Shown here piece by piece: positions 26,764 through 61,239 of a DNA stretch of 64,000 nt; the first letter of the stretch is position 1; each line of letters starts with the position of its first letter. The stretch is taken from positions 142,786,001-142,850,000 of the forward strand of contig JBNRSN020000012.1 in NCBI GenBank assembly GCA_051313645.2, given 5' to 3'. Below the pieces are notes generated by a model. That model saw nothing but the letters and a program-made list of their open reading frames with translations. It searched no databases and was not told the origin of the DNA. This DNA comes from Centroscyllium fabricii (lineage: Eukaryota). The position numbers and the translations under genes were made by a program.

Positions 26764-26831
26764 GGCTTGCAGTTGGGGTCGAGATTGGCGAACAGTGAGG
26801 GGGGGTCGATTTTCAGGGTGGAGAGGCCGTA

Positions 26832-29796
26832 ACCGTAACTTTAAGTTGTACACCCTCAAGCAGTTGTGCGCCCCAGCCTTACTAGGTCTGGATTTCCAGT
26901 GCCACCTCAAGAGCGTGACAATGGAGTTCGGCGGGACCCTGCCCACCCTCACCGTCAGCAGCCGGGACAGTCCCTTCCCAAAGCGGAGCCCGGCCTACGG
27001 CCTCTCCACCCTGAAAATCGACCCCCCCTCACTGTTCGCCAATCTTGACCCCAACTGCAAGCCTATTGCTACTAAGAGTCGGCGGTATAGTGTGGGGGAT
27101 CGCACGTTTATCAGGTCGGAGGTCGGGCCTATGCTGAAGGAGGGGATAATTGAAGCCAGCACCAGCCCCTGGCGGGCCCAGGTAGTAGTGGTGAAGACTG
27201 GCGAGAAACAGCGGCTGGTTATCGACTACAGCCAGACTATTAACCGCTACACCGGGCTCGACGCCTAACCCCTCCCCACATCTCGGACATGGTCAACCAG
27301 ATCACCCAATACAAGGTGTTCTCCATGATCGACCTTAAGTCGGCGTATCACCAACTCCTGATCCAGAAAGCCGACCGCCCGTACACCGCCTTCGAGGCGA
27401 ACGGTCGGCTCTACCACTTCCTCCGGGTCCCCTTCGGCATGACCAATGGAGTGTCAGTGTTCCAACGGGAGATGGACCGCATGGTTGACCAGAACGGGTT
27501 GCGGGCCACCTTCCCTTACCTGGACAACATGACTATCTGCAGCCATGACCAGCAGGACCACGATGCCAATCTGGCCAAATTCCTTGACACGGCGGAAAGG
27601 CTGGAACTTACGTATAACAAAGACAAATGTGTCTTTAATACAGATCGGCTCGCCATCCTCGGATACGTGGTGGAGAATGGGGTCCTCGGCCCCGACCCAC
27701 AGCGTATGCGCCCCTTACAGGAACTGCCCCTTCCTCACATCCCCAAAGCCTTGAGGAGATGCCTAGGATTTTTCTCCTACTACGCACAATGGGTCCCACA
27801 GTTCGCGGACAACGCTAGACCACTCCTCAAGGCTGCCGTCTTCCCCCTCTCAGTAGAAGCCCAAACGGCATTCGCCCGGATAAAGGAAGACATTATCAAG
27901 GCGACCATGCACGCCGTTGATGAATCCATCCCTTTCCAAGTGGAGAGTGACGCTTCGGACTTTGCCCTTGCTGCCACCCTGAATCAGGCAGGCAGGCCCG
28001 TAGCGTTTTTCTCCCGCACCTTACAGGGACCCGAAATTCGCCACTCTGCAGTGGAAAAGGAGGCCCAGGCCATCGTGGAGGCCGTGCGCTACTGGCGTCA
28101 TTATCTGGCCGGTAAGCGTTTTACCCTACTCACCGACCAACGGTCGGTGGCGTTTATGTTTAATAATAAACAAAAGGGTAAGATCAAGAATGATAAGATC
28201 CTGCGGTGGCGGATCGAGCTCTCGACTTACGAGTACGACATTCTTTACCGACCAGGTAAACTCAATGAACCCCCGGACGCACTGTCCAGGGGAATGTGCG
28301 CCAGTGCCCAGCTAGACCGGCTGAAGGATCTCCACGATCACCTCTGTCACCCGGGTGTCACCAGACTCGCCCACTTCGTTAGATCCCGTAGCCTCCCCTA
28401 CTCCAACACGGAGATCAAGGCTATGACCCGAGAGTGCCCTGTTTGCGCCGAGTGCAAACCCCAATTTTTCCGGCCAGACACGGCGCACCTCATTAAGGCC
28501 ACCCGCCCCTTTGAACGTCTAAGCGTGGACTTCAAAGGCTCCCTCCCCACCACCGACCGCAACTCATACTTCCTCACGGTCGTAGATGAGTTCTCCCGCT
28601 TCCCCTTCGCCTTCCCCTGCCCAGATATGACGAGCGCAACGGTGATAAAACACTTCACCATGCTGTTCGCCATTTTCGGTCTCCCCAGCTACATTCATAG
28701 CGACCGGGGGTCATCGTTCATGAGCGATGAGCTGCGTCAGTTTCTGCTCCAGAAAGGGGTTGCCTCGAGCAGAACGACCAGTTATAACCCCCGGGGGAAC
28801 GGCCAGGTAGAAAGGGAGAATGGGATCATCTGGAAGGCGGTCACCCTGGCTCTGAAGTCCAGAGGCCTTCCAGTGTCCCATTGGCAGGCAGTCCTCCCAG
28901 ACGCGCTGCATTCGATACGCTCTCTGTTATGTACGGCCACCAACGCCACCCCTCATGATTTAACGTTTTCCTTTCCCAGGAAGTCGACTTCGGGGACAGC
29001 TCTTCCTCCATGGCTCACGACGCCGGGGCCGGTCTTCCTTAGAAAACACGTCCGTGGCCATAAGACCGACCCCCTGGTGGACAAGGTGCAGCTCCTGCAT
29101 GCTAACCCACAGTATGCCTACGTGCAGTTCCCGGACGGGCGCGAGGACACCGTCTCCATCAGGGACCTAGCGCCCGCCGGGAGCACCACAGCAGAGCCAC
29201 TGGTCGGGCAGCAGCCCGCCCAGCCCCGGTATCTCGAACACCCCCTGCACCTACAGTGGCCACCGAGGTATCCAGAGCCCCAGCCGTGGCCAGCCCAAGA
29301 CCACCATTCCGATGGCTCGGATCAACCGATACCACCAGCATCTGAAGTTTCGGCACCAGCGCCACTGTCACCACCACCGGACCCGAGAGGGACGGACCAG
29401 AACGAACTTCTGCCAGAGCCCCGGCGGTCCTCCAGACAGACGCGACCGCCGGACAAACTTATAATGAACTGCTCTGTCCATTCACCCCACCGGACTTAAA
29501 TTTTCAAGAAGGGGTGAATGTGGTAACCGTTATTGTACATAGTTTTACCACTACAATATTGTTGCCAATATTGCCTGTATAAGCTAACCATGTTGCAACA
29601 CTGTCGTGGAGCCAGGTCAGCCACACCTCTAACTCCTCCCCCAGGTGAGGCCCTTTATAGGTGAGGACTGACCGGGCTCACTCATTCTGTTCCTGTTTGT
29701 TCGTTCGGAGTATAGCTCCAAAATAAGTCAATAAAAGCCTGTAGTTTAAGGTCACTACTCGTCTTTGACTTTATTGATTAAATTGACGATACGTCA
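26832..29796 (+). mobile_element. Gypsy element (YLDN family) right arm: end of PR, RT, RH, IN and 3' LTR (29519-29796)
   Basis: ORFs 26795-27268 and 27289-29499; PPT at about 29506-29518. Confidence 0.9.
27289..29499 (+). CDS. Gypsy Pol fragment RT-RNase H-integrase (736 aa open)
   Basis: IDLKSAYHQ, PFG, YLDN, SDASD, HHCC zinc finger, DDE core; preceded by a stop and frameshift near 27268. Confidence 0.85.
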   Translation: MVNQITQYKVFSMIDLKSAYHQLLIQKADRPYTAFEANGRLYHFLRVPFGMTNGVSVFQREMDRMVDQNGLRATFPYLDNMTICSHDQQDHDANLAKFLDTAERLELTYNKDKCVFNTDRLAILGYVVENGVLGPDPQRMRPLQELPLPHIPKALRRCLGFFSYYAQWVPQFADNARPLLKAAVFPLSVEAQTAFARIKEDIIKATMHAVDESIPFQVESDASDFALAATLNQAGRPVAFFSRTLQGPEIRHSAVEKEAQAIVEAVRYWRHYLAGKRFTLLTDQRSVAFMFNNKQKGKIKNDKILRWRIELSTYEYDILYRPGKLNEPPDALSRGMCASAQLDRLKDLHDHLCHPGVTRLAHFVRSRSLPYSNTEIKAMTRECPVCAECKPQFFRPDTAHLIKATRPFERLSVDFKGSLPTTDRNSYFLTVVDEFSRFPFAFPCPDMTSATVIKHFTMLFAIFGLPSYIHSDRGSSFMSDELRQFLLQKGVASSRTTSYNPRGNGQVERENGIIWKAVTLALKSRGLPVSHWQAVLPDALHSIRSLLCTATNATPHDLTFSFPRKSTSGTALPPWLTTPGPVFLRKHVRGHKTDPLVDKVQLLHANPQYAYVQFPDGREDTVSIRDLAPAGSTTAEPLVGQQPAQPRYLEHPLHLQWPPRYPEPQPWPAQDHHSDGSDQPIPPASEVSAPAPLSPPPDPRGTDQNELLPEPRRSSRQTRPPDKLIMNCSVHSPHRT

Positions 29797-33731: not shown

Positions 33732-35148
33732 TTCAATTCAATTCAATTCAATTCAATTCAATTCACGTTTTATTGTCCTTGCAGAGTACTAGTACAATAC
33801 AACGAGACGAAGACTCGACTCTCCCGAGAGTAGTGCAAATAAAATAAATAAATTACATGCAAATTGCATACAGTAAAGTACATTATCAGGCATGCAGGTG
33901 CCGGAGTTTCTTTTTAGAGTTCAGGAGGCTGACAGCCCTGGGGAAGAAGCTGTTCTGAAATCTAGTCGTGCGGGTGCAAATTGCTCTGTAGCGTCTCCCG
34001 GAGGGCAGGGGGGCGAACAGACTGTGGCTGGGGTGTGTGGGGTCTTTAATAATGTTCAGAGACCTCCGTAAGCAGCGTTTGAGGTAGATGCTTTCCATTG
34101 ACGGTAGCTGTGTACCGGTAATTCGTTGGGCAGTTTTGACTACCCGCTGCAGGGTTTTCCGGTCCGAGATATTGCAATTACCATACCAGACAGTGATGCA
34201 GCTTGTCAGTATGCTTTCTATTGTGCAGCGGTAGAAGTTGGAGAGGATGCCGGATGACAGCCTGGCTTTCTTCAGCTTCCTTAGGAAGTACAGGCGCTGT
34301 TGGGCCTTCTTAACCAGAGAGGAGGTGTTTAGTGACCAGGAGAGATCTTCCGAGATGTGGACCCCGAGGAACTTGAAGCTGGACACCCTTTCCACTTCAG
34401 CCCCTTGGATGAAGATGGGGGTGTGTCTTCTGCTTCCAGTCCTCCGGAAGTCCACTATGATCTCCTTGGTTTTCTTGGTGTTCAGTGCCAGGTTGTTGTC
34501 GGCACACCAACCCACAAGGCGCTGGATCTCATCCCTGTAGGCTGACTCGTCGTTGTTGGTGATCTGGCCAACCACCGTGGTGTCATCCGCGAACTTGATG
34601 ATCGTGTTGGAGCCATGGACAGCCGCACAGTCGTGAGTGAAGAGGGAGTAGAGGAGGGGGCTGAGCACACAGCCTTGTGGGGCCCCTGTGTTCAGGGTAA
34701 GGGGGGGGGAGGTGAGGTTGCCTAACTTCACAGACTGTGGTCTGTTGGTTAGGAAGTCCAGGGTCCAGTTGCAGAGGGAGGTGTTCAGGCCGAGGGTGAG
34801 GAGGTTGGTAGACAATTTGCTGGGGACGATGGTGTTGAATGCTGAGCTGTAGTCAATAAACAGCATTCTGATATATGTATCTTTGCTATCCAGGTGGTTT
34901 AGTGCAGAGTGAAGAGCCGTAGTGATAGCATCCTCTGTAGATCTGTTCCCACGGTAAGCGAACAGGTATTGGTCCAGGGCGGCGGGGATGCTGGCTTTGA
35001 TGTGGGCCAGGACCAGCCGCTCGAAACACTTCATGATAATGGGTGTAAGTGCAACAGGGCGGTAGTCGTTCAGGCACGTCACGGCCGTTTTCTTGGGCAC
35101 AGGGATGATGGTGGCGGTTTTGAAGCAGGTAGGGACAGCTGCTGTCTG
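33732..35148 (-). mobile_element. Rex1/Babar LINE, 5'-truncated, uninterrupted RT ORF
   Basis: ORF 33886-35175: [29 protein letters not shown]; (TTGAA)n tail. Confidence 0.93.
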
Positions 35149-35429
35149 GCGGAGAGTCATCCAGACTCGAATCATCTTGGCTTGTTCTGTGATTTTCAGT
35201 AAGAAAAATCCTTTTTTTTTTTTAAATCATTCTGTGGGATTTTCACAGACATGGGACTGTAACATTTGACCCTTTGTGACTGCACCCTTTGATCTCAGGC
35301 TGACTGATATGTTAGAACACCTTTGATTGCTTTGATGTCTCTCAGCTGAGGTGTGATGTGAAACAGCTGGAGAGACCACATTGTTCTCTCTCTCTATATA
35401 TATGCTATGTTTAAATGAATCTCGTCACT

Positions 35430-35466: not shown

Positions 35467-36909
35467 TTTCAAATAAAACTGTTGGACTATAACCTGGTGT
35501 TGTGTGACTTCTTACAATCATCATCGGAGGAAGAGCAGCCACAGCAGCTCCACAACCAGCCACAACAGCAACACCAGGATCGCCAACCTCCTCCTCACCC
35601 ACCTGATGATGCACAGGGCAGAGGCCCTCAGCACAGGGCTGCACCTTGCTGCAGGAGATGCCCCCAACACAGGGTTTACAGGCCGAGAATCAGCTTCCTC
35701 AGCATGACTGAGCAGCAGTGACAAAGGAGGCTGAGATTTTTACGAGAGGTAGTCGCTGACATCTGCGCAATGCTGCACCAACACCTGGAGCCCAGAGGAA
35801 TGGGTGGACACCCCTTACCAGTGGCTGCCAAAGTCATCACCACACTCAACTTCTTTGCTTCAGGCTCCTTCCAGGGATCAGCTGCAAACATCAGTGGCAT
35901 CTCCCAGTCAGCCTCACACACCTGCATCATGCAGATCACCGATGCCCTCTTTGCAAAGGCGCACAATTACATCCACTTCTCCCCGGATAGCCCAAGTATG
36001 ACCGCATTTGCGATTGGCTTTGCCAATATGGCAGGCTTCCCAAGGGTGTAGGCCATCATAGACTGCACACATGTAACCATTAGGGTCCCCTATCACAACC
36101 CAGCTGTATTTGTCAACCACAAGGAATTCCACTCCCTGAACGTCCAGCTGGTGTGTAACCACAGGAAAATCATCATGTATGTTTGCGCTAAGTACCCTGG
36201 CAGTTGCCATGACTCCTTCATCCTGCAGCAGTCTACTGTGCCTCAGCACTTCCATCCACCAACCCAGCGTTCCGGTGGCTTCTTGGCAACAAGAGCTATC
36301 CCCTGAAAAAAGTGGCTCATGACACCGATGAGGAGGCCATCAAACGAGGATGAGGAATGGTACATTTTCACCAGAAGCATCACCGAGCAAACCATCGGCT
36401 TGCTCAAAATGCGCTTCTGATGCCTGGACAGGTCTGGCAGAGCCTTGCAGTATGCACCAGCCAGGGTGTCCAGAATCATCGTGATCTGCTGTGCCCTGCA
36501 CAACATCGCACAGCAGCACAGCTTAGTGCTGCCGGATGAACAAGTGGCACAGCACACAGCCTCCTCTGAAGAAGAGGAAAAGGACGAGGATGAGGAGGAG
36601 AACAAGGAGGAGGATGAGGAGGACCGAGAGCAATGCCTTGCGGAACCGGATGTGGCCAATCCAGCAGCACGCAACCATATTGCTGGCCATCAGGCAAGGG
36701 ATGCACTCATCCATGCCAGATTTGAGTAAGCTTACGCTTCAACCACAGGTGGCTGGCACATAGAGATGAATATAAGTCCGACATTCTCAAAACTCCAGGC
36801 ATCATCTGTCCAATAAACGGTGATTTGCGCTCAGTGTCACCACCAACATTCTAAGTGGAATTCTCCCTGAGCCCTCACTCTTGAACTTCCATTTCCCAGA
36901 ACACAGAGA

Positions 36910-37150
36910 CCACACTTTAGATGATCTCAGCAGATCATTAAACATTTTTCCACACTGAACCCACATGTGTCTGCACACAGACCTCAAACTCACTTCCTCC
37001 ACAATTTGCAGCCATGCTGCCTTGCTTTGCTGAGGAGGCCTCCTCCTTCTGTTTCCAGGGAAGAGGGCCTCCTGACATCCTATAACTCCCTCCACAAGAA
37101 CATGGAGGGAACCCTCATTGAACCTTGGGTGCAGCCTTAGTTTTTGGGGC
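36910..37150 (-). pseudogene. Harbinger Myb/SANT exon 1 remnant
   Basis: PRFNEGSLHVLVEGV...AAWLQIVEEVS...WVQCGKMFNDL. Confidence 0.8.
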
Positions 37151-37388
37151 TTCCATTCCTGCAGCAGCCAGCAATTTAACAGAAGAAAGCTAATGCATCT
37201 GCAAAGGGGACATGGCCCCTTTAAATCTTCACTGAAACAACACGTCATCAGAGGTGAGAGTCTGACACTCTGCAAGCAATTGCCTGGAGGGACCCACACG
37301 TCGGGGTGGCGGCAACCGCGTAGTGGGTCCGGAAGATGCCGAGCAGCAGGCCCGCTGTCAACCCACCTCCTTCATTAAAATCAAGCCC

Positions 37389-41297: not shown

Positions 41298-41857
41298 TTT
41301 CAAATAAAAATGTTGGACTATAACCTGGTGTTGTGTGACTTCTTACATTTGTCCACCCCAGTCCAACACCGGCCCCTCCACATCATGGCTACTAAGCAAT
41401 GTGGCAAAGAGACCTGTCAAAGAACAAGAAGTTGGTTAATGTTTTTATTTTTCTTGGTCCTTACTGTATAAATGTACTCCCTAAAATATAGAAGATTATC
41501 TAGTTAATATTATAGGCAAGAACTTTGTAAAAGGCAGCATAATTTGTATTTTTTTTTACTTCAGTTATATATTACACTTCTACACTGGCCTCAATGAAAC
41601 CGCATCATTGGCCGACGAAAATGAAATTACACCCAGGAGAGAGTGAGGTGAGTGACAAAGAGGAAAGCACATCACAGAGTGAATTAGTAATGGAGTGAGC
41701 GCTTTCACCCGAGTCAGTAGGTTATGTGATCACACCCTGTTACAGACTTCAGCACATAAACTAGGCTGACACTTCAGTGCAATACTAAGGAAGTGTTGCA
41801 TTGGTGGAGGTGCCATCTTTCAGATCACGCATTAAACCGCAGACCCTGAAAAGATAC

Positions 41858-42119
41858 TGTGATAAACTGTATATCACTGTAATACCATGTAACACCTGTA
41901 TAGCACTGTAATACCATGTAACACCTGTATGAGATCCCAGGGACATACCTGGCGCCGCCCATGACTCCTCCCCCACTGGAGGAGGTATATAAAGGACTGT
42001 CCCCATCCCCCGCACTATTCTGGGGACAGTCAGCTCGGTTGTGTATCTCTAACGTAGTTAATAAAAGCCTGATTATTATAACCTACTATTCGACTCCGAA
42101 GACGTTATTGACGGTTACA
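41858..42119 (+). repeat. 5' LTR
   Basis: TG..CA, internal 28-bp tandem duplication, TATATAAA near 41987, AATAAA 42060-42065. Confidence 0.97.
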
Positions 42120-42138
42120 ATTTTATTAACTACTTGAA

Positions 42139-45100
42139 ATGGATACTTCAATGTTGAAACCATCAGTGTTCGAGGTTGACCCCCGATCGCCTGGAGCATC
42201 AAACGCTTTCTCACACTGGCGAAATGTACTGGAAGGATACATTAGAGCCAACGCAGCGGACATAATGACCGAGGAGCAAAAACGACGGCTCCTCCACGCC
42301 CGGGTGGGCCCGCAAGTATACTCGATGATAGTGGACGCCTCATCATTCCAAGAAGCCCTCAGGACCCTCGACGGGGAATACAATCGGGCGCCAAACAGAG
42401 TCCACGCGAGGCACATACTGGCCACCCGAAAACAACAGGACAACGAATCAAGTGTGCAGTTTCTAAGAGCCCTCAGAACCCTGGCACGGGACTGTGACTG
42501 CAGAGCGCAAACGGCCCTAGTACATATGGAGAGTCTTATCAGGGATGCCTATGTAACAGGCCTAAAATCGGACTATGCTAGACAAAGACTGCTAGAACAG
42601 AATGGCCAGGACTTACAGGCCACTATCGATTTGGGACATGCGCTAGATAGCGCCTCTACGGATTTATCATCCTATTCTACCAACTACACGGGCCCAGCCC
42701 CGCAATCTTGGACAGTACGGGCGCAAAGACCGTCAGAGGAACTTCTCACAGCGGCCCACGCTAAAGCGAAATGTTACTTCTGTGGTCAACCACAGCATCT
42801 AAGACGCAGCTGCCCCGCCAGAGAAGCGATCTGCTCCAAGTGTGACAAAAAGGGACACTATGCAAAGGTCTGCAAAGGCCCATATGTTAAATCAAGACTG
42901 GGCAGCGCTGCCTGTGGAACAAGGGAACAGCAGGCTCGCCCATCCCCCACCCAGCAGCTCTCAAGGCAGCAGCAGCACCCATCCCCCACTCAACAGTACA
43001 GCACATGGCGGCAGCCATCCCAGGAAACTGACCTGGAGGACTACTCTCCGGATCAAAATAACTACTCTCCGGACCAAGATAACTACTCTCCGGATCAAGA
43101 CTTTGGGGAGGACCCGGTACTAGCATCCATGAGCCTAGACCAGAAGACAATCCAGCCACTGGGGAGATCAATGATGCCGGTGGAAGTTAACGGTGAAGAG
43201 GTGGTGTGCCTGTTCGACAGCGGGAGCACAGTAAGTTTTGTCCATAAGAATACTGTTAAGCGCCTCTCTCTTAAAGTAATCCCTGCGCGCCAGAGAATAT
43301 CTATGGCGTCAAAGTCAGAATCCGCTGACGTCACCGGGCGCTGTAGTGTAACTCTAAACGTAAAGGGGGCAATCTTTAACAAGTTTAGTTTTTACGTGCT
43401 GCCGCAGCTCTGCGCCCCCCTACTCCTGGGACTGGATTTCCAGTGCCACCTTCAGAGCGTTACGATGGCTTTCGGTGGACCCCTCCCTCCCCTCACGGTC
43501 ACAAACCGCGGCTCAAAGCGGCATCCCCAGTATACTACCTGCGGCCTCTCAACCCTTAAGGTTGCCCCTCCATCCCTCTTTGCTAACCTCACCCCAGACT
43601 GTAAGCCCGTCGCCACCAAGAGTAGGCGCTACAGTGCTGGGGACAGGGCATTTATAAAATCCGAGGTGCAGCGCCTCCTAAAAGAAGGGGTCATAGAGGC
43701 CAGCAATAGCCCTTGGAGAGCACAGGTAGTCGTGGTGAAAACCGAGGAGAAGAATAGGATGGTAGTGGATTACAGCCAGACCATAAACCGGTTCACCCAG
43801 TTAGATGCCTACCCCCTCCCCCGGATAGCAGACATGGTGAACCAAATCGCACAGTTTAAAGTATTTTCAACCATCGACCTAAAATCTGCCTATCACCAGC
43901 TTCCCATCCGCCCACAGGACCGTCTGTATACTGCTTTCGAGGCTGACGGCCGCCTCTACCACTTCCTTAGGGTGCCGTTCGGAGTCACGAACGGGGTCTC
44001 GGTCTTCCAAAGGGAGATGGACCGAATGGTTGATCGGTACGGGCTGCGAGCGACCTTCCCGTACCTCGATAATGTGACCATCTGCGGCCATGACCAGCAG
44101 GACCATGACACCAACCTCCAAAAATTTCTCCACACCGCCAAAACCCTGAACCTCACGTATAATAAGGAGAAATGTGTGTTTAACACCGGCCGCCTCGCCA
44201 TCCTCGGCAACGTGGTGGAAAATGGAGTCATCGGTCCAGACCCGGACCGCATGCGCCCCCTCATGGAGCTTCCCCTCCCCCACTCCCCCAAATCTCTTAA
44301 ACGGATTTTGGGATTCTTCGCTTATTATGCCCAGTGGGTCCCCAATTATGCGGACAAAGCTCGCCCACTATTAAAATCAACCTCTTTCCCACTTTCTGCA
44401 GAAGCCAACTCGGCATTCTGCAGAATTAAAAAGGACATAGCCAAAGCCACGATGCACGCGGTGGATGAGTCCGTCCCATTCCAAGTGGAAAGTGATGCAT
44501 CTGACTTTGCCCTGGCCGCCACCCTTAACCAGGCGGGCAGACCTGTGGCCTTCTTTTCACGTACCCTCCAAGGCCCAGAAACCCGCCATTCCTCAATCGA
44601 AAAGGAGGCCCAAGCAATTGTTGAAGCAGTGCGGCATTGGAAGCACTACCTGGCCGGAAAGCGTTTTACCCTGCTGACTGACCAACGCTCAGTCGCTTTC
44701 ATGTTCAACAACAAAGAGCGGGGTAAGATCAAGAACGACAAAATATTAAGGTGGAGAATTGAACTATCAGCGTTCAATTATGATATTTTGTATCGGCCCG
44801 GGAAATTTAACGAACCCCCAGATGCCCTATCCCGCGGTACCTGTGCCAGCGCACAGGCTGACCGTCTCCAAACCCTTCACAACGACCTCTGCCACCCGGG
44901 GGTCACCAGGTTGGTTCACTTCGTGAAGTCCCGCAACCTCCCCTACTCCATCGAAGAAGTCAAGACCATGACTAGCAACTGCCAGGTCTGCGCGGAGTGC
45001 AAGCCGCACTTCTACCGGCCCGACCGGGCGCACTTAATCAAGGCCACCCGCCCCTTTGAACGACTCAGCGTCGATTTTAAAGGGCCCCTTCCCTCAGCCA

Positions 45101-45978
45101 ACAGGAACGTCTATTTCCTCAACGTTATAGATGAGTACTCCCGTTTCCCCTTCGCCATCCCCTGCCAGGACATGACCTCCGCCACTGTTATCAAAGCCCT
45201 CAGTAGCATCTTCTCCCTGTTCGGGTACCCGAACTATATCCATAGTGACCGGGGGGCCTCTTTTATGAGCGACGAGCTGCGTCAGTTTCTGCTAGCAAAA
45301 GGCATTGCAACTAGCAGGACCACCAGCTACAACCCCCGGGGGAACGGGCAGGTAGAGAGAGAGAACGCCACGGTCTGGAAAGCCATCCAGTTAGCCCTAA
45401 AGTCAAAAGACCTCCCAGTCACCCGATGGCAGGACGTTCTCCCTGAAGCACTCCACTCTATCCGGTCCCTATTGTGTACTGCCACTAACGCCACCCCTCA
45501 CGAAAGACTTTTTGCCTTCCCCAGGAAGTCAGCTTCCGGGACCTCGCTACCATCGTGGCTGCTATCTCCGGGACCGGTCCTGCTGCGGAAGCATGTGAGG
45601 GGACACAAGGCAGATCCCCTAGTCGAACGGGTCCACCTCCTGCACGCCAATCCCCAGTACGCTTACATAACGTACCCCGACGGGAGGGAGGACACCGTGT
45701 CCATAAAGGACCTAGCCCCAGCAGGGATCCCCAAAACCAGCCCGGCCAGGCAGCCCGAGCTCCCAAAACCCCCTGTGACGCCCCCCGAGCCACCGAAGTC
45801 GAAGTACACGCTCCGACACGTGGGCCCAGTACCCCAGTATGTCCACAAGGCACCTGCGCGCAGCACGACCCAGCCCCCAAGCCTGGATCCACAATGCGCT
45901 CCCCCTAGAGCCAGAGGACGAAAGAGAGAGCGCGCCCCCTGCTGTCGAAATAAGGGCATCACCGCCACCCGGAAGTGA
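42139..45978 (+). CDS. Gag-Pol polyprotein, 1279 aa (double CCHC, PR DSG, RT, RNase H, integrase)
   Basis: CYFC..H..C and CSKC..H..C, LFDSGS, YLDN, SDASD, HHCC, DDE; the conserved RRSAR..PPERL tail lies in another frame (to 46162). Confidence 0.95.
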   Translation: MDTSMLKPSVFEVDPRSPGASNAFSHWRNVLEGYIRANAADIMTEEQKRRLLHARVGPQVYSMIVDASSFQEALRTLDGEYNRAPNRVHARHILATRKQQDNESSVQFLRALRTLARDCDCRAQTALVHMESLIRDAYVTGLKSDYARQRLLEQNGQDLQATIDLGHALDSASTDLSSYSTNYTGPAPQSWTVRAQRPSEELLTAAHAKAKCYFCGQPQHLRRSCPAREAICSKCDKKGHYAKVCKGPYVKSRLGSAACGTREQQARPSPTQQLSRQQQHPSPTQQYSTWRQPSQETDLEDYSPDQNNYSPDQDNYSPDQDFGEDPVLASMSLDQKTIQPLGRSMMPVEVNGEEVVCLFDSGSTVSFVHKNTVKRLSLKVIPARQRISMASKSESADVTGRCSVTLNVKGAIFNKFSFYVLPQLCAPLLLGLDFQCHLQSVTMAFGGPLPPLTVTNRGSKRHPQYTTCGLSTLKVAPPSLFANLTPDCKPVATKSRRYSAGDRAFIKSEVQRLLKEGVIEASNSPWRAQVVVVKTEEKNRMVVDYSQTINRFTQLDAYPLPRIADMVNQIAQFKVFSTIDLKSAYHQLPIRPQDRLYTAFEADGRLYHFLRVPFGVTNGVSVFQREMDRMVDRYGLRATFPYLDNVTICGHDQQDHDTNLQKFLHTAKTLNLTYNKEKCVFNTGRLAILGNVVENGVIGPDPDRMRPLMELPLPHSPKSLKRILGFFAYYAQWVPNYADKARPLLKSTSFPLSAEANSAFCRIKKDIAKATMHAVDESVPFQVESDASDFALAATLNQAGRPVAFFSRTLQGPETRHSSIEKEAQAIVEAVRHWKHYLAGKRFTLLTDQRSVAFMFNNKERGKIKNDKILRWRIELSAFNYDILYRPGKFNEPPDALSRGTCASAQADRLQTLHNDLCHPGVTRLVHFVKSRNLPYSIEEVKTMTSNCQVCAECKPHFYRPDRAHLIKATRPFERLSVDFKGPLPSANRNVYFLNVIDEYSRFPFAIPCQDMTSATVIKALSSIFSLFGYPNYIHSDRGASFMSDELRQFLLAKGIATSRTTSYNPRGNGQVERENATVWKAIQLALKSKDLPVTRWQDVLPEALHSIRSLLCTATNATPHERLFAFPRKSASGTSLPSWLLSPGPVLLRKHVRGHKADPLVERVHLLHANPQYAYITYPDGREDTVSIKDLAPAGIPKTSPARQPELPKPPVTPPEPPKSKYTLRHVGPVPQYVHKAPARSTTQPPSLDPQCAPPRARGRKRERAPCCRNKGITATRK

Positions 45979-46291
45979 CATAACCACCACCAGCCAACCA
46001 GCAGAAAAGGAACAACCGACGCAACCAGCCACTCCACGACAACGAACACCACAGGCACCGCCAGCACGGCAAGCCACTCCACGACAACGAACACCACAGG
46101 CACCACCAGCGCTGCGAAGATCAGCGCGGACAACGAAACCGCCTGAAAGACTAAACATATAGTCAAAAGAACATTAATTGTATATATTTTGTTAATGAGC
46201 ACCGTGTAATTAGTTGTTTTTTCTTTTTCCTTTTTGTACCCCCCGTGTGTTGTTCACCCCACCGTACTTTGGTTTTTAAAGAAGGGGTGAA

Positions 46292-46553
46292 TGTGATAAA
46301 CTGTATATCACTGTAATACCATGTAACACCTGTATAGCACTGTAATACCATGTAACACCTGTATGAGATCCCAGGGACATACCTGGCGCCGCCCATGACT
46401 CCTCCCCCACTGGAGGAGGTATATAAAGGACTGTCCCCATCCCCCGCACTATTCTGGGGACAGTCAGCTCGGTTGTGTATCTCTAACGTAGTTAATAAAA
46501 GCCTGATTATTATAACCTACTATTCGACTCCGAAGACGTTATTGACGGTTACA
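46292..46553 (+). repeat. 3' LTR
   Basis: Copy of 41858-42119. Confidence 0.97.
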
Positions 46554-46566
46554 GATACCATGGCAC

Positions 46567-50254: not shown

Positions 50255-51643
50255 GTTCAGAGAAGATTCACTGAGCTAATTCCTAAATTGAAGGGGTTGG
50301 CTTATGAGTAAAGGTTGAGCCTATGCATCGTTGGAGTTTAGAAGAATGAGAGGGGATCTTATTGAAACGTATAAGATTCTGAGGGGGCTTGACAGGGTAG
50401 ATGCACAGAGGATGTTTCCCCTCATGGGGGAATCTAGAACTAGGGGGCATAGTCTCAAAATAAGCGGTCACCCATTTAATACGGAGATGAGGAGGAATTT
50501 CTTCTCTCAGAGGGTGGTGAATCTTTGGAATTCTGTGCCCCAGAGAGCTGTGGAGGCTGAGTCAGTGAATACATTGGGCCCTGTCTTCCTGTGCTCCAGA
50601 AGAGCTGCACCCCCACGAAGGGGGGTCAGAAATGCCTCGTGGGTGTGCAGCTCGGGTGATTACCAGAAACGTGAACTTCCTGTGCTGATGGGCAAGGGGC
50701 TTCAGCTTCCTACCCAGGAAGACTTTGAGCTGCAGACTTCCTGTAGGCAGCTGCTCAAAATGCGGGTGTATCACATGGGGAAGTCTCTCTTTTGCTGCAC
50801 ATATAAAAAGCAGTCTTAAGAGGCTGCAGGCAGCTTTGAGAAGTGAAAAAAACACGTTTAAAGTTTTTTTTAAATTGATTCCTTTGGAGATATTTGTCTG
50901 TGGTCTTTCAGCTTGTAAATGGGTAGGGTTTTATATCTTTTGGTGAAAGTGAAAAAAAATCGGGATTTGAACGCGATGTCAGCCGCTCTGATGGGAATCA
51001 CAGCTGCTGACATTGCGTTCAAATCCCGATTTTTTTTCACTTTCACCAAAAGATATAAAACCCTACCCATTTACAAGCTGAAAGACCACAGACAAATATC
51101 TCCAAAGGAATCAAAAAAAAATTAACTTTAAACGTGTTTTTTTGACTGGAGCAGAAAAAAACCCTAACATCAGAAAAGGCAGAAACTTTAAAAAAACAGC
51201 TTCCTAGAAACTGAAAAAAACAAAAAAAAGGTGCTTCCCTTCCTGATATTCTTCATCCCGCAGGCCGATTCTGTGCTTCGTTCGGGGGGAAAGCCGACCT
51301 CAGTGGGCGTGGCTTGCACCCCGCACCAAAAAAAAGACGTCCCCTCCGCTGGAAAAAAACCCGGCATTTCCAACAGGAAGTTGCCGTCGGAAAAAAAAAA
51401 AAAAGTACGTGCGCGTGCGCCGCGGGTGCTCGGGAGCGCGCACCAGCGGCAAACGGGCCACAGGAAGACATGGCCCAATAAAGGTGGAGATAGATAGATT
51501 TTTGAAAGGGAAGGGAGTCAAGGGTTATGGGGAGCAGGCAGGAATCTGGAGTTGAGGCCAAGATCAGATCAGCCAAGATCTTATTGAATGACGGAGTAGG
51601 GGCCAAATGGCCTACTCCTGCTCCTATTTCTTATGTTCTTATG
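50255..51643 (+). mobile_element. CR1 LINE 3' fragment interrupted by MITE 50576-51476
   Basis: EFRRMRGDLIETYKIL...FFSQRVVNLWNS; resumes at 51477; TTATGTTCTTATG tail. Confidence 0.85.
50576..51476. mobile_element. MITE, TIR GGGCCCTGTCTTCCTGTG, with about 300-bp internal palindrome
   Basis: TIRs with one mismatch; inverted repeat about 50846-51142. Confidence 0.85.
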
Positions 51644-51755
51644 TTTTTACTAATTATCCATTGGTTGTGAAGCACTTTGGAATGCCTTGGGACTGCGAAG
51701 TTATTTCTTTTTTAATGCAGTGACAATGTTGCTACCCTTTACAACCAGAGCAATA

Positions 51756-52080
51756 CAGGTTGAGCATCGGTAATCCGGCACCCGATGGTTCGGCACCTTC
51801 AGTGGTTCGGCATGAATCGAAACCGGCGGTCTTCAGTTTGCGGAGCAGCCGCTCGGTGGCACCACCATTTCCCGCGAAGGGTGGGCGAGCACCAAAGGCA
51901 TCGGGCGTTTGGGTTTCTGCTTTCTAGTGTGCTATCCCCAGGCTCCTTCCCGGGGAGTGTTCTACCCGCGTTCTCCGAGCCCCAGGGAGTGTTCTACCCG
52001 CGCGCTCTGGGCCCCAGGGAGTGTTCTACCCCTGAACCTTCAGTGGTTCGGAATTTTCAATGGTCCGGCACCGGCATGGT
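51756..52080. mobile_element. Tc1/mariner-type MITE, one TIR lost
   Basis: TA+CAGGTTGAGCATCGGTAATCCGGCACCC; related to 55240-55948. Confidence 0.65.
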
Positions 52081-52943
52081 ACTTCCCATTGACCTTTTAA
52101 GGTCCCAGGGTCGGATCTTAGAACTGAAAAAATAAGAACATTTTCCAAAAACTATTGTCCTAGAATTGACACTCAGCATACGGCGTCATAAACCTTCTGA
52201 AAGGCCCCTCAGGTTCTGAGTTTCCGCACGCTGTGCATGCGTGAAAATCCAGAACTTGCGACCTGTCAAGATACGCCTTGACAGATCTAGTGAACCAACT
52301 GAGGCACAGAGTTGGGCTATTTGCCCAACTACTGCCCATCAAATGCCCACGAAACTCTTACAGCTGGTAGAAGCAGGCATTGGGCCTGATTTCACCAGTG
52401 CAAAGGTTAATATAAATCTTAAATTAAAAATTTGTAAATGATGCACAAGCTCTTAAAATTACTTTATGCAAATTTTGGCCCGGATTAAAATGTTTAAAAT
52501 TATTCTTCAAAAAATTTAACTTTTATTGTATTTGCTGTATTGAAGGGACTTTTGATTAAATTTGAAAATGAGAACATTTATTTTTATTAGAATTGTCTAA
52601 ATTCTTTAATTATTTGGGGAGTCCATTGCATGTCATTAGGGGATTCTGCTCGAAAACGATTGCAATGTAATCCTGCTTTCTCATTGGAGGAGCTGGTCAC
52701 TTGATCCCAGGGACTCTTCCGAACCAGCAGTACCCCTGGGATCCGTGGGTCTTTACGCAGGCCTACGCCTGGAGGCCCACGACCCAAACTCTCCATAGCT
52801 GTGGAGCCAGGAGGTGAGCTGGGAAATATTTTGCGGGTTGGAGGCATACTCCGGAGGTACACCTACGACCGTAAATTCAGGGCCATCAAAAACAATTATT
52901 TATCAGCCAAGTACTTGCGACATGGAAAACCCCAGAAGAATGG

Positions 52944-53348
52944 ATAGAAACATAGAAACATAGAAACTAGGAGCAGGAGTAGACCATTCGGCCCTTCGAG
53001 CCTGCTCCGCCATTCAATGAGATCATGGCTGATCATCCAAACCCAGTACCCTGTCCCTGCCTTGTCCCCATATCCCTCAATCCCTATCGAGCCTGCATCG
53101 ACACATATCCCACCCTATCCCCGTAACCCCACATATTCAATCCCCCTAACACTATGGGTCAATTTTATCCTGGCCAATCAACCTAACCCGCACATCTTTG
53201 GACTGTGGGAGGAAACCGGAGCACCCGGAGGAAACCCACGCAGACACGGGGAGAATGTGCAAACTCCACACAGATAGTACCCGAGGCTGGATTTGAACCC
53301 GGGTCTCCAGTGCTGTGAGACAGCAGTGCTAACCACTAAGCCACCGTG
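52944..53348 (-). mobile_element. V-SINE (HE1-like), same subfamily as 46567-46972
   Basis: Colinear and highly similar to 46567-46972. Confidence 0.85.
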
Positions 53349-53713
53349 TCTGGGACAATGGGCCAAATACCTTTGCTCATCCTTGACCTTTTCTTTCTTA
53401 CATTCTTATAAATTTTACCCAAGCCTCGATGGGAAAGCACATCACATTTGCTGCTCCTAACTTTATCACCACATATTTATTGGATTTAATCTCAGCTTTG
53501 AAGTCGCCAGCCCGGTCCAGATTTATAGCCTAACCTCAGATGTGACAAGGGCAGCATATGCACTAAAACCATTACTGCGTCAACAACAGCTGGAAGAGTG
53601 CAACTTGAAAAGTGGAAGCAACTGCAAGAGGCACTGCATGAAAGTGTCAGCCTTGATTGTTTGCTCAAGTCCCACAGTGGGACTGAATCATGGCCTCTGA
53701 CTCAGAAACTTGT

Positions 53714-54501
53714 GGGGGGGGAATTTCATGTCCCCGTAAGGTGGTGTTTTCGGCAGCCCGGCCGGCAAAATAGCGGAACCGGCGGGTCTCGACCTCTCTC
53801 GCCGTATCCCCACCGCTTTCTCATTTTCCCCGCCCAGATTCCCCGCCCCGAAACCTTCCCGCCGCCGGCCAGCGGGGATGGGTTGTCACCTCGTTAAGGG
53901 CCCTTAATTGGCATCTTTAATGCCATTTTAAGGGCCCTCAGCCATTTTGCCCTGTTTCCCGCCCTAACCACGTCACCTTAAACCCCGCTGGGTGAAACCC
54001 AGCGGAAGCACAGCGCTGGTTATTACTTTCTCCTTCAAAGTGTGAAGGACATGCTGCCAAATGCTTTGCATGCCTCCAGCACCTTAGAGGAGTAGGTTAC
54101 TCTGTGCTGGCTGCAGCAGCTGTGAGCAGAAACTGAGAAACCTCAGCTCTGCACATTTCCTGACAGCCGGTGCGAGCTGTCAAGGATTCTGGGCCCACCC
54201 GCCCACCTGTCAGTCACCAGCACTTGACCTTTCCCATTGGTTCCACTCGACTGTGATGTCACAGTGGAATGTTTCCATGGGAATTGTCAACAACCAGTGC
54301 TGGAACTGTCAATCAAACTCCTCGCAGCCCCGATGCAGCCTGACTCGATTGACTTAATTACCTCCCACTGCCGCCGGCGTGGATTTAACAACCCAATTAA
54401 ATTAAAATTGCATGGTCTTCCCAGCTGTTTGGGCAGGCAGGACAGGAAGCCGCCCAGACCAATCCCCGCCAGGTTCCCGCCCTTCTGACAAAGTCACCCC
54501 C
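53714..54501. mobile_element. Non-autonomous Harbinger (MITE)
   Basis: First about 280 bp resemble 2144-2420; inverse homolog of 16779-17561. Confidence 0.8.
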
Positions 54502-55239
54502 AAGAACACTACCTCTAAGTCAAACTAATACTTGGTTCATGAAAACTGTAATTCGCTGCAAACATGAATAAGAAGCAATTCTGGAGCCCAAAATGTAACC
54601 TCTCTCACTATAATATGCTTGTGCTTTTCTTTCCCGCAAATGGACTTCAGAAGAGTCGACTTTGCAGGTTTGCAATAATGTTTGGGAGATTTACAGTGGA
54701 AAATTGAGAAATATTTAAGGTAACGTGATATGATTGAACCTGGTTCCTGATAAATTAAAGCAGACTAAAGGATAGAAGCGAATGTGCTTAAATAGAAGTT
54801 TAAAGACTAGTTTTGGGATCACCAGACTACTTTCAAACTGTAAAAGGAATCCAGTCAACAGGAGGATTGTGTGAATTATTAAGACAAGTGAAATCACGTG
54901 AGGTTTAATGGGTGAACACATTAATATAACGTTTTTAAGGGATTCCGAATGGAATCAGAAAAGTTCAAGAAATTCCTCCTCATCTCAGTTCTAAAAGGAC
55001 GACCCTTTATTCTGAAACTATGCCCCGAATTCTGGATTTTCCCACGAGGGGAAACATCCTCTCTGCATCTACCTTGTCGAGCCCCCTCAGTATCTTATAA
55101 GTTTCAATAAGATCCCCTCTCATTCTTCTAAACTCCAAAGAGTATAGACCCAACCTGCTCAACCTTTCTTCATAAGTCAATCCCTTCATCTCAGGAATCA
55201 ACCGTGTGAATCGACTCTAAACTGCCTCCAATGCAAGTA

Positions 55240-55948
55240 TAGGTTGGGCACCGGTAATCCGGCACCCTCAGGACCAGGCCGGTGCTGGACCATTGAAATT
55301 GCCAGACCACTGAAGGTTCTGGTAGAATGCGTGGGTAGAACACTACCCGGGGATGGAACACTTAAACGGTGATTCAAAACCACGCAACCTTTGCTGAAAC
55401 CAATTAATATAAATTTCAGTGAAGACTATACAACCAGCACAGGGTTTTGTTCAGTGGAGGATTGGAGGGTAGAGCACACTGACCCTTTTTAGGGGCAATT
55501 CCACAAACCCCCACTTTAGGCGGAATTTTGCCAGCGCTCAGAGAACGGGTTTGGAGACGGGACCGCTGTCAAAATCAAAAAGATTGACAGCGGGCCGGTA
55601 TCCTGCTCTGAACCCGCCTCCTTGTCAGTTTCCCGAGTGCCGGTTCTGCCTGCGCTTTGCAGACACGGCACTGAGCGGCGGGTCATTCAATTGTGCTTGT
55701 TAGGAGGGTGTTTAAATTAACTAAATCCCCATTTTCCCAGCTCCAAAGCATTTTCCCAATTTTTCCATGAGGTTTCCATCACTCAGGGATCACGCCAGGT
55801 AAGTATGTCAGGATGTGTCTGTAGATGCAGGGCACTGTGTGCTTGCTTGAAAGCGTTGGACGCCGAGCGACTCCGCAAACTGAAGAATTCGTGCCAGACC
55901 ACTGAAGGTGCCGGAGAATCGGGTGCCGGATTACCAGTGCCCAACCTG
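55240..55948. mobile_element. Tc1/mariner-type MITE inserted in CR1
   Basis: TIR AGGTTGGGCACCGGTAATCCGGCACCC / GGGTGCCGGATTACCAGTGCCCAACCTG, TA/TA flanks. Confidence 0.85.
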
Positions 55949-57287
55949 TATATCCTTCCTTAAATAAGGAGACCAAAACTGTACACAGTATTCAAGGTGT
56001 GGTCTCACCAATAGCCTATGCAGTTGTAGCAGGACTTTCCTGTTTTTATACTCCAACCCCCTTGCAATAAAGGCCAACATTCCATTTGCCTTTTTGATTA
56101 CTTGCTGTACCTGCATGCTAACTTGTTGTGTTTCATGCACAAGGACCTCCTGGTCCCTCTGAACTGTAGCATTTTGTAATCTCTCTCCATTTAAATAATA
56201 ATTAGCTTTTTTATTTTTCCTGCCAAAGTGGATAACCTCGCACTTTCCCACATTATACTCCATCTGCCAAATGTTTGCCCGTTCACTTAGCCTGTCTATA
56301 TCCCTTTGCAGATTCTTTGAGTCCTCTGCACAACTTGCTTTCCCACCTATCTTTTTTTCATCCACAAACATGGCTACATTACACTTGGTCCCTTCATTCA
56401 AGTCATTAATGTAGATTGTAAATAATTGAGGCCCCGGCACCGATCCCTATGGCATCCCACTAGCTACCATTTGCCAACTGGAAAATGACCCATTTATCCT
56501 GGCTCTGCTTTCTGTTAGTTAGCCAATTCTCTCTCCATGCTAATATATTACCCCTAACTCCGTGAGCTCTTATCTTATGCAGTAACCTTCTATGTGGCAC
56601 CTTATCGAATGTCTTCTGGAAATCCAAATACACCACAACCACTGGCTCACCCTTATCCACCCTGCTCGTTACATCCTCAAAGAACTCCAGCAAATTTGGT
56701 AAACATGATTTCCCTTTCATAAAACCATGCTGACTCTGCTTGACTGTATTATGATTTTCCAAATGCCCTGCTACTGCTTCCTTAAAGAAGGACTCCAGCA
56801 TTTTCCCAACGACAGATGTTAGGCTAAACTGGTCTATAGTTTCCTGCTTTCTGTCTCCCTCCTTTCTTAAGTAGGCGTGTTATATTTGCGGTGTTCCAAT
56901 CCACTGGGACCTCTCCAGAGTCCAGGGAATTTTGGTATATTGCAACCAATGCATCCACTATCTCTGCAGCCACTTCTTTTAAGACCTTGGGATGCAGGCC
57001 ATCTGGTCCAGGGGACTTGTCGTCTTTCAGTCCCATTATTTTACCGAACACCTTTTCCCTTAGTGATAGTAATTGTCGTTAGTTCTCCCTTCCCTGTGGC
57101 CCCTTGATTATCAATTATTGGGATGTTGTTCGTGTCTTCTACCATGAAGACTGATACAAAATATTTGTTCAGAGTTTCTGCCATTTCCCCGTTCCCCATT
57201 ATTAATTCCCCATTCTCATCCTCTAAGAGAAAGCCATTTACTTTAGTTACTCTGTAGCTAAAGTACGCTAGCCACTGCGCCACCACT

Positions 57288-57403
57288 GCACGGTGACACA
57301 GTGGTTAGCACTGCTGCCTCGCAATAAGGAGCTCCTGGGTTCGAATCCTGCTTGGCCCAGGACCTCTCTGCGTGGAGTTTGCATGTTCTCCCCGTGTTCG
57401 TGT

Positions 57404-57434
<31 letters not shown>

Positions 57435-57667
57435 ACCACCCAAAGACATGCAGGTTAGGTGAATTGGAGATACTAAAAAAAAAAAATGCCCATGAGTATG
57501 TGTGTGAGATATAGTTCTTAGAGCTGGGGGTGTCGGGGGATATGGGGAGAGGGTAGGAGGGGGGTGCTGGGTTTGGATGATCAGCCATGATCTCATCAAA
57601 AATGGAGGAGCAGGCTCGAAGGGCCGAATGGCCTACTCCTGCTCCTACCTTCTGTGTTTCTGTGTTT
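57288..57667 (+). mobile_element. V-SINE (HE1-like) inserted in CR1
   Basis: B box GGTTCGAATCC, V-domain, CR1-type tail. Confidence 0.85.
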
Positions 57668-57764
57668 CTCTCTTCCTTTTTATATACCTGTAGAAGCTCT
57701 TACTATCTGTTTTAATATTTCATGCCAGATTACACTCATAATTCACCTTCTCTCTCTTTATTAT

Positions 57765-58036
57765 TGTGGTAAACCACTGTATGTTGTATATAGATATCTC
57801 CCCCTTGTGTCCCCTCCCTGTAACTGCACATAATGGCTCCTTGCCAGGGAGGACTCACCTGGGAGGACTCCGCTCCCCGGCTTCCTCGCCAGGCTCCGCC
57901 CACTGGGTATAAAAGTGAGAGCACACCTGAGTGCTCTCACTTTGGCTTGGAAGACCGTCAGACCTGTGTCATCTTCTATGTGAATAAAAGCCTCGATTAC
58001 ATCTAACCTCCGACTGGAGTAATTGATTGTGCATCA
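57765..58036 (+). repeat. Solo LTR related to the YLDN Gypsy family
   Basis: TGTGGTAAAC..GCATCA, 5-bp TSD ATTAT, TATAAAA, AATAAAAGCC. Confidence 0.88.
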
Positions 58037-58399
58037 ATTATGTTTTTAGTCATCCTTTGCTGGTTTTTAAAAATGTCCTAATCGTCTGGCCTCCCACCAA
58101 TCTTGGCAACATTGTATGCCTTCATTTTCAATTTGATTAAAATTTGAGTAAAATGCAGACAGTTTTTGAAATCAGCTTAAATTATATTTTTGAGCAGGTG
58201 AAAGGGTAAGCAGACAAACCAGTTGATTGAGTTTCTTTGAGCAGTCTTTCTTAGCAGACCCTTCAAGGAATAGATCATGGATTCTGCTTGGTAGCTACCA
58301 TCACTTGATCCCTACCTGTCTCATTTGGAATGACGTAGTTGCATATGCTGCTGCATCTGTTGTGGCTCGATCAGAATTACAACTAACTGGACTATTAAG

Positions 58400-60014
58400 A
58401 GGGTAATTTTCATTGAATCGTGGAGTTGGGATTGGAGGTGTGTGGGGGGTTAAAGTCTCGAATTCGGGGGTCCCGACACCATCCTGCACCTAACCCACCT
58501 CCATGTCAGTTTCAAAGGAGGCGGGTACCCGCCCCGCACTGGGACCTGCCTAACCGGTGGGAAGGGATTAGTGCCAATTAACTGCCTGTTAACAGTTAGT
58601 TAACAGGCAATTTTTAGCCTAATCCCTATTTTAAATGTTGAAGTGTGAGTTTCCCGACAGCTCCAAACCACGCCAAGTTAGAGGAGTCGGGCCGTCGGGT
58701 TGAAGGACTTGGAGGGGTTGAGATGTCAGTGTTCAGGTGAGTGATGTGTGCAGAAAACATAGAAACATAGAAGATAGGAGCAGGAGTAGGCCATTCGGCC
58801 CCTCGAGCCTGCTCCGCCATTAAATGCGATCATGGCTGATCATCCAAATTCAGTACTCTGTCCCTGCTTTCTCCCCATATCCCTTGATCCCTTTAGCCAT
58901 AAGAAATATACCCAACTCCTTCTTGAATATATTTAATGAATTGGCCTCTACTGCCTTCTGTGGTACAGAATTTCACAGGTTCACCACTCTCTGGGTGAAG
59001 AAATTCCTCCTCATCTTTGTGCTAATTGGCTTACCCCTTATCCTTAGACTGTGACCCCTGGTTCTGGACTCCTCCACCATCGGGAACATCCTTCCTGCAT
59101 CTAGTCTGTCCAGTCCTGTTAGAATTTTATAAGTTTCAATGACATCCCCTCTCATTCTTCTAAACTCCAGCAAGTACAAGCCCAATCGACCCAATCTCTC
59201 CTCATACGTCATTCCTGCCATCGCAGGTATCAGCCTGCTGAATCTTTGCTGCACTCCTTCCATGGCAAGAACATCCTTCCTCAGATAAGGCAACCAAAAT
59301 TGCACACAATACTCAAGGTGTGGTCTCACCAAGGCCCTGTACAACTGCAGCAAGACATCCTTGTTCCTGTACTCAAACCCACTCGCTACGAAGGCCAAAA
59401 TACCATTTGCCTTCTTAACCGCCTGCTGCACCTGCATGCTTACCTTCAGCAACTGGTGCATAAGGATGCCCAGGTCTCGTTGCACTTCCCCTTCTCCCAA
59501 TCTATTGCAATTCAAATAATAATCTGCCTTCTTGTTTTTGACACCAAAGTGGATCACCTCACATTTATTCATCTGTCATGCTTCTGCCCAATCACCCAAC
59601 CTGTCCAAATCATACTGGAGTTTCTCGGCATCCTCCTCACAGCACACATGCCCACCCAGATTTGTGTCGTCTGCAAACTTGTGCAAAGGAAAGTGTGTTT
59701 GGTGTGTCTAAAGTGATTAAATAAGTTTAACATACCTTTTCTTACCTTTTCAGCCTTCCTTCCTTTAGGCTTCAGGAGTGCCTCATCTAACTGGCACAGA
59801 AAGCAGAATGGCTGTGATCTTTCAAAAGTGCTGGTGAGATTTCTAACTGAGTCTGTGTAGAAGGACTCAGGTTAGAAGTAAGACTGTCAGTGTTTGACAG
59901 CTTAACCCTAACCCGCTGGGCGGGCTCAACAAGATCAATCGCGATGGAGGCGGTACTACAACCCCAAAAGTTGTAGTCCCGCCTCCTTCCCGACTTCACA
60001 ATGAAAATCACCCC
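58400..60014. mobile_element. Non-autonomous Harbinger-type element split by a CR1
   Basis: TIR AGGGTAATTTTCATTG / CAATGAAAATCACCCC. Confidence 0.7.
58753..59679 (-). mobile_element. CR1 LINE 3' fragment
   Basis: ORF 58973-59572 with KCEVIHFG and RPHLEYCVQFW; (TTTCTATG)n tail. Confidence 0.9.
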
Positions 60015-60729
60015 ATAATGTCCAAAATATATATTTCTCACAACCTTTGAAATGCAGCCTTATCATTTGAGACGTCAATTCGCCAGGGTACTCCCACAAT
60101 GTTCCCAGCTGCATTAACACATAAACAAAATGTGTGTCAAAGTTCAGGGAGGGCTGGGGTTGCTGATGAGAGCTATGAGGGCTGAGAACCATGACGTGGA
60201 AGAGAGATACTATAAGCCAAGTCCGCAATGTTAGCAGGCAGCAATGGGACCAGAACATGCTTCATCTCTCTCGATAAATGTTGATTCCTGATACTGACCA
60301 CACATTATCCAGCAGCTTTAAGAATGCTTGACAAATCCCTCCCAGCCAAGCTTTCTATCTTTGGAGATCTCAGCACAGAGGCAGAAGAGAAATGTCGGCT
60401 GGTAGGAGGAATTGATTTAGCACAGGAACACCAGAAAACAGCTGGCAAAAATTTCAGAAAATGCTGGGAATTCAGATCTTTCTGCATGGTTCACAGCACA
60501 AAAAGGCAAGAGAGACCCTGCAAATAGTCAAGCTCTTATCCAAGTGTCATGGGGTGCCTTTGACAGAAGGGAGGACCGGAGCAGATTGTTTAAAGCAGAG
60601 ACCTCGATTTTGCTCTGTGATACCAAAACACAATCCTTCAGGAGGGATCAAAACAAACATCTATGGCGACTGATATATTCAGAAAGTTGCCTTGGGATGC
60701 TGGGGTGTAGCTCACCAGCCGTCTTAGCT

Positions 60730-61207: not shown

Positions 61208-61239
61208 TAACTAAGCTAAAATTATCCTGGATAGATTGT

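Follow-up and report, generated by a model that had tools for sequence, protein, structure and literature searches.

Organization of the locus

The window, that is, the whole stretch of 64,000 nucleotides of Centroscyllium fabricii DNA that was analysed, contains a young LTR retrotransposon (Table 1). Pfam positions give it the gag-PR-RT-RH-IN domain order of Ty3/Gypsy elements (Metaviridae), and the TG..CA LTRs, polypurine tract and short target site duplication (TSD) of that group are all present, while no env was found in the element. The PDB sequence closest to its RT is that of Ty3 (E 2.7e-51), and the closest named proteins retrieved by the homologue search come from catsharks and rays. 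The ORF of the window copy is shorter than those of its siblings (1282 aa vs mostly 1334-1349 aa), and a change of frame occurs past the integrase core, at about 45.87 kb, within its C-terminal tail; in this copy, whose tail is out of frame, Pfam gave no match to a chromodomain behind the integrase. The RNase H carries the KIKNDK insertion and the TDQ that are typical of the clade. A search of the atlas returned generic Gypsy polyprotein clusters only, and a scan of viral contigs returned no relative of the element. The element family is present in other sequencing runs too (contigs of four runs).

Elsewhere in the window, a head-to-head rearranged pair of elements occupies positions 22888-29796, with short RT fragments at its junctions. 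The inner LTR of this pair is cut just behind its own poly(A) signal (26516-26762), and the pair looks like a product of template switching. A second, broken Gypsy element, which we take to be CsRn1-like, lies on the minus strand at 7650-12162; it has a YIDD motif, LTRs that are 99% identical and an ordinary TGG primer site. Judging from the translations, the ORF fragments at 2425-3688, 5371-7309 and ~35560-37370 presumably derive from a Harbinger-like transposase and a Myb/SANT-like protein, and non-LTR RT fragments with FADD/YADD motifs are found at 520-1296, 33886-35226 and 50319-63454.

Table 1. Features of the young element and other YLDN-bearing sequences in the window
Feature	Position	Strand	Remark
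Ty3/Gypsy LTR element, young	41858-46553	+	identical LTRs, 5-bp TSD
TSD GATAC, left copy	41853-41857		5 bp
TSD GATAC, right copy	46554-46558		5 bp
5' LTR	41858-42119	+	262 nt, TG..CA, identical to 3' LTR
TATA-like box in LTR, predicted	41986-41993	+	from sequence
LTR segment with AATAAA signal	42054-42066	+	complements primer-site slot
Primer-binding-site slot	42121-42133	+	no TGG; 13-nt perfect complement of 42054-42066
gag-pol, single ORF	42139-45978	+	1282 aa stop to stop from 42130
Aspartyl protease domain	43177-43440	+	Pfam
RT core (RVT_1)	43747-44202	+	Pfam
RT motif A catalytic Asp (TIDLK)	43876-43878	+	aligned to Ty3
RT motif C, YLDN	44062-44073	+	TAC CTC GAT AAT; Asn codon 44071-44073
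RNase H domain	44470-44775	+	Pfam; catalytic D-E-D-D present
Integrase core, D-D(35)-E	45046-45336	+	Pfam; spacing counted from translation
Polypurine tract	46278-46291	+	from sequence
3' LTR	46292-46553	+	262 nt
YLDN, left arm of 22.9-29.8 kb structure	25198-25209	-	TAC CTG GAC AAC
RT fragment with YLDN, at rearrangement junction	25744-25824	+	81 nt, 100% identical to a stretch of locus L096
YLDN in insert	25755-25766	+	TAC CTG GAC AAC
YLDN, right arm of 22.9-29.8 kb structure, another subfamily	27517-27528	+	TAC CTG GAC AAC

Asn and Asp counts in the genome

Motif C of the window RT reads YLDN in place of the canonical three-aspartate YxDD. It aligns column for column with the YLDD of Ty3 RT (PDB 4ol8), and a misalignment of the motif was rejected. 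The preliminary description had reported YLDN in the young element, in both arms of the rearranged pair and in the insert, and all four copies indeed read back as such. It had also argued that the Asn does not stem from the decay of individual copies. This was borne out by genome counts made with one degenerate 32-nt context around the motif, in which single-base variants were compared: YLDN gave 209,678 matches and YLDD 283, with both Asn codons in use. The genome-wide predominance of Asn rules out both chance and copy-specific decay as its source. A reversed-pattern control gave no genome match. That every copy carries YLDN is nearly true of this genome, where Asp accounts for ~0.13% of the motif matches, but it does not extend to the clade, about half of which has Asp (see below). 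The 209,678 matches in 7.2 Gb correspond to one per 34 kb; at 4.5-5 kb for a full-length element, the clade would total up to ~1 Gb if most of these sites belonged to complete copies.

Two control A-to-G changes within the same context gave 438 matches for YLDS (Ser, same codon) and 788 for YLGN (Gly at the first Asp). The Asp count is below both, so that Asp copies are no commoner than mutation noise; the deficit is not taken as selection, because CpG loss may depress the Asp count. A looser Asp pattern matched 264 genome sites. The Asp matches listed share their synonymous haplotypes with the Asn matches, and the nearest neighbour of 32 Asp copies, an uneven sample, was Asn in 13 cases and Asp in 19 (at most 97.2% identity).

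Could the Asn copies have a dead RT and depend for their mobilisation on an Asp-type helper acting in trans? The genome does contain a small and divergent family of YLDD/YIDD elements that belongs to this clade (4 among the 100 matches listed, L231-L234), and the window holds other Gypsy elements with YIDD, but all four members of the small family are broken and they show only 49-60% protein identity to the query. When an Asp-type relative served as protein query, 28 of the best 30 genome loci had Asn and 2 had Asp. The YLDD and YLDN counts given above led us to reject a large family of Asp helpers; Asp was matched less often than either control change, though CpG loss may lower its count, and the genome gives no sign of a YLDD helper subfamily. 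The stronger constraint on RT than on gag and protease across the Asn subfamilies (see below) also speaks against such a helper, which we consider highly improbable.

The same counts bear on the idea that Asn is turned into Asp after transcription or translation, either by A-to-I editing of AAY or by deamidation. A single A-to-G change converts AAY to GAY, and Asn can deamidate. However, edited RNA would be reverse-transcribed and become fixed as Asp, and RNA editing was rejected on the 0.13% Asp share. As to deamidation, in 176 of 178 rows the motif is followed by Ile, Val or Leu, a context in which Asn is slow to deamidate. Either form of conversion has, in our estimate, scarcely any chance of being correct.

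Signs of activity

Among the matches listed for an 80-aa query, a listing that favours identity, all 150 scored matches are identical to it, mostly in ORFs of 1334-1349 aa. Two LTRs were found in 19 of the first 20 siblings, 100% identical in 11 and 99.6% identical (one difference) in 8, and perfect TSDs flank each of these 19.

Constraint was estimated from 40 copies, taken from the first Asn-pattern matches, and the window copy. They fall into 12 subfamilies, with Asn encoded by AAC in 27 copies and by AAT in 13 as well as in the window copy. Since the pattern required Asn, its presence in 41 of 41 holds by construction, and copies selected in this way are informative on conservation in the surroundings of the Asn but not on how frequent it is. 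Between the 12 subfamilies, pS is 0.59-0.70, near synonymous saturation, and the median pN/pS is 0.20 for RT, 0.14 for RNase H and 0.26 for integrase, as against 0.41 for protease and 0.54 for gag. RT is thus more constrained than gag and protease, which argues against its being a dead domain carried by a helper. An active lineage with a natural two-Asp site, as the preliminary description had proposed, agrees with the copy number, the young intact copies, the purifying selection on RT and the lack of any sign of a helper; on this sequence evidence, the YLDN enzyme is most likely active and the family seems to be spreading still.

Distribution of Asp and Asn across the clade

The motif is YxDN in 97 of the best 120 homologues, xxDD in 22 and neither in one, and the motif A catalytic Asp is kept in all 120. 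The 80 metagenome loci are divided into 63 DN, 16 DD and one with neither. Of 150 representatives at 50% identity, 148 cover the motif: those at least 50% identical have Asn in 22 cases, Asp in 21 and another residue in 2, those at 38-50% identity have 10 Asn and 28 Asp, and below 38% all 65 have Asp and none Asn. Searching with a deep Asp member as query brought in 109 further proteins, of which 83 have Asp and 26 have Asn. In the pooled set of 324 clade proteins, Asn is found in 165, Asp in 156 and another residue in 3, and the first Asp of motif C is present in 323. YxDN prevails among the best homologues, but not in the clade as a whole, with Asp in about half of its members.

A FastTree tree was built from 203 dereplicated rows, using 25 of 36 outgroup rows and leaving out the motif column. 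On this tree, the Asn label needs 21 changes, 13 of them forced by strongly supported branches. In a separate parsimony count, the last motif column undergoes 23 changes vs one at each of the other catalytic aspartates. A single Asn clade is rejected by the AU test with a p value of 1.7e-12, which is optimistic since the 50 rows used were hand-picked after the first tree. The deep branches are mostly Asp, which indicates that Asn is derived, and both gains of Asn and returns to Asp are likely to have occurred. Ser, which is mutationally as close, was not seen fixed; this is interpreted as meaning that the site is not free but restricted to Asp or Asn.

The strongly supported branch that unites the window copy with named shark and ray proteins has Asn in 9 of 9 rows. 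Among the named proteins that were checked, the 7 from sharks, rays and anemones all have Asn (P0001-P0009, P0066, P0067) and the 13 from arthropods and nematodes all have Asp (P0007, P0086, P0128, P0170, P0300-P0386), a host pattern that is confounded with the tree.

A probable two-aspartate active site

We estimate at about 0.75 the probability that YLDN is the family-wide form of the motif and that the enzyme is active with two catalytic aspartates, the third position needing only a side chain of the shape of Asp or Asn. The catalytic aspartates left would be that of motif A and the first of motif C; these two invariant residues would act as ligands of the two metals, and the third carboxylate would be made dispensable by a background that is common to the clade and older than the switch. 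An AlphaFold model (pLDDT 87) has an ordinary Ty3-like RT-RNase H fold, with Ty3 RT (4ol8) as the best Foldseek match, and the RNase H catalytic residues are all kept.

Laboratory mutants with the same substitution at the homologous position are available in two related elements. According to PMC2148107, Ty1 D211N retains polymerase activity and is processive, with kpol lowered 223-fold, but it loses transposition, which is partly rescued by suppressors in RNase H. Likewise, PMC5371799 describes Ty3 D214N as keeping polymerase activity, with low processivity, and as lethal in vivo, and D151N and D213N as dead. Together these data suggest that the third aspartate is the accessory one, the other two being essential. 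The earlier statement that a D-to-N change cripples replication thus applies to Ty1 and Ty3 transposition, which is lost, but not to polymerase activity in vitro, which is kept. By analogy, the loss of transposition would argue against an active two-aspartate enzyme here; unlike these mutants, the window lineage has amplified to ~210,000 motif matches.

The processive but 223-fold slower Ty1 mutant (PMC2148107) raises the question of whether the Asn enzyme is likewise active but slow, and tolerated with a short 4.7 kb genome and a long replication time, with no compensation at all. The co-variation analysis is in keeping with this: in 908 residue tests, no association with Asp/Asn survives tree correction among the rows listed (best sign-test median p, 0.125; the re-rooting was done with the subclade of 123 rows, not with that of 146). 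The compensating residue envisaged in the preliminary description did not emerge from these rows. In addition, the repeated returns to Asp in other branches could mean that Asp confers an advantage. On the other hand, Asp is only one transition away and does arise (the 283 matches), and a revertant with a much faster enzyme would be expected to spread. Yet the ~210,000 matches include no expanded Asp subfamily, and all nine rows of the window-copy branch are Asn. We therefore regard a slow, uncompensated enzyme as unlikely.

Returning to the active two-aspartate enzyme, several changes are common to Asp and Asn members of the clade, namely WRAQ and DYSQT in the fingers and KIKNDK and TDQ in RNase H. 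We infer from these sequences a permissive background rather than paired compensation, of which RNase H would be the first suspect because the Ty1 D211N suppressors map there. A more tentative proposal, which we hold to be rather improbable, is that in the shark/ray branch Asn would be the preferred residue, with a site of two carboxylates plus an amide working at full speed; Asp revertants would arise without ever spreading, and the repeated switches within the clade would track host conditions.

The primer site

The primer slot starts one base past the LTR, and its sequence is complementary to the part of that LTR that carries the poly(A) signal. No TGG was found at the primer site of any of the 25 genome elements. 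The complement between slot and LTR has a mean length of 11.3 nt, compared with 6.6 nt in permuted pairs (none of 2000 permutations was as high), and reaches at least 11 nt in 17 of the 25 elements, 24 of 40 sampled loci having passed the LTR filter for this comparison; the letters of the slot and of the LTR segment co-vary across subfamilies. A self-complementary site is also found in 26 of 42 metagenome Asn loci (2 of them off-position) and in 3 of 9 metagenome Asp loci (L113, 16 nt; L145, 15 nt; L173, 11 nt), many of the misses being loci without a 5' LTR. The Asp-type genome locus L233 has a 12-nt LTR complement.

These complementarities suggest that minus-strand synthesis probably starts from a primer furnished by the element's own RNA. 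The stem between slot and LTR covers the AATAAA signal and can form only at the 5' LTR, where it could suppress premature polyadenylation besides or instead of priming. Self-priming is the likely function, with masking of the 5' poly(A) signal as its rival; neither depends on the Asn.

The preliminary description had linked the Asn to this unusual priming and proposed examining the co-occurrence of YLDN with a primer site without tRNA match. Both traits do occur in the same clade, and none of the 25 genome elements has TGG while 17 have the long LTR complement, as might be expected if Asn were an adaptation required by tRNA-less priming. But the same site exists in the Asp members L113, L145, L173 and L233, which contradicts such a requirement, and Asp prevails in the deep branches. 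Strict coupling was rejected since Asp members share the site, and we find an adaptation of this kind very unlikely. The tRNA-less primer site is a trait of the clade, Asp members included, and offers no explanation for the Asn.

In Tf1, the primer-site slot complements the element's own LTR and matches no tRNA. The window element resembles Tf1 and sushi in this respect: its primer site complements its own LTR, not a tRNA. It differs from them in that the slot is complementary to the poly(A)-signal segment, whose predicted position is ~35 nt downstream of the transcript start rather than at the start itself, and in that Pfam detects no chromodomain in the window copy, with its out-of-frame tail. 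Hairpin priming in chromoviruses is treated in PMC3601003.

Relation to known systems

An Asn in place of the last Asp of motif C also occurs outside reverse transcriptases. Mononegaviral RNA polymerases have a GDN motif; they are right-hand polymerases as well, but RNA-dependent RNA polymerases and not RTs. By its single ORF of ~1200 aa and its LTRs of ~250 nt, the window element presumably resembles Cigr-1, a Ty3/Gypsy clade of Ciona. No Ciona name occurs among the homologues listed. In PMC6238403 and PMC8556966 (see also PMC3670739), the Cigr-1 clade is reported beyond Ciona, including in molluscs and annelids; the descriptions in the accessible parts of the first two make no mention of YxDN or of the primer site.

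Natural YVDN motifs are reported, in PMC554778 and PMC9094657 (Bowen and McDonald as cited there), for nematode Bel/Pao elements, Cer7-Cer12 of C. elegans and the Atlas virus of Ancylostoma. These share with the window element a natural Asn at the last YxDD position, intact copies and identical LTRs (the last two as given in PMC9094657). The activity of their RT was named as an open question in 2005 in PMC554778. The same paper assigns to the Bel/Pao YVDN group an integrase D-E spacing of 45-53 and a triple Cys-His box; the window element has a D(35)E spacing and two CCHC knuckles in its translation. It also differs in having a Gypsy RT, whose best solved match is Ty3, a D-D(35)-E integrase and no env, and in the repeated Asp/Asn switching of its clade, of which none is described for nematodes in the accessible parts of PMC554778 and PMC9094657. 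No published case of YxDN in Gypsy was found in a search that left most subscription papers and Repbase/GyDB outside its reach, where such sequences may well have been deposited without comment. What the present lineage adds to known YxDN elements is a genome-scale case for activity and repeated switching between Asp and Asn.

Implications

Reverse transcriptases are taken to have an invariable active site of three aspartates, and this lineage bears on that view. The role of the third aspartate, whether in primer deprotonation, in binding of metal A, in pyrophosphate release or in translocation, has so far been argued from crippled laboratory mutants. With a vertebrate genome filled with Asn copies and with many independent Asp/Asn sister pairs among the relatives, both this role and the activity of the enzyme become testable in natural enzymes. 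A pipeline that scores YxDN copies as "dead" would go wrong on one of the most abundant elements of this genome.
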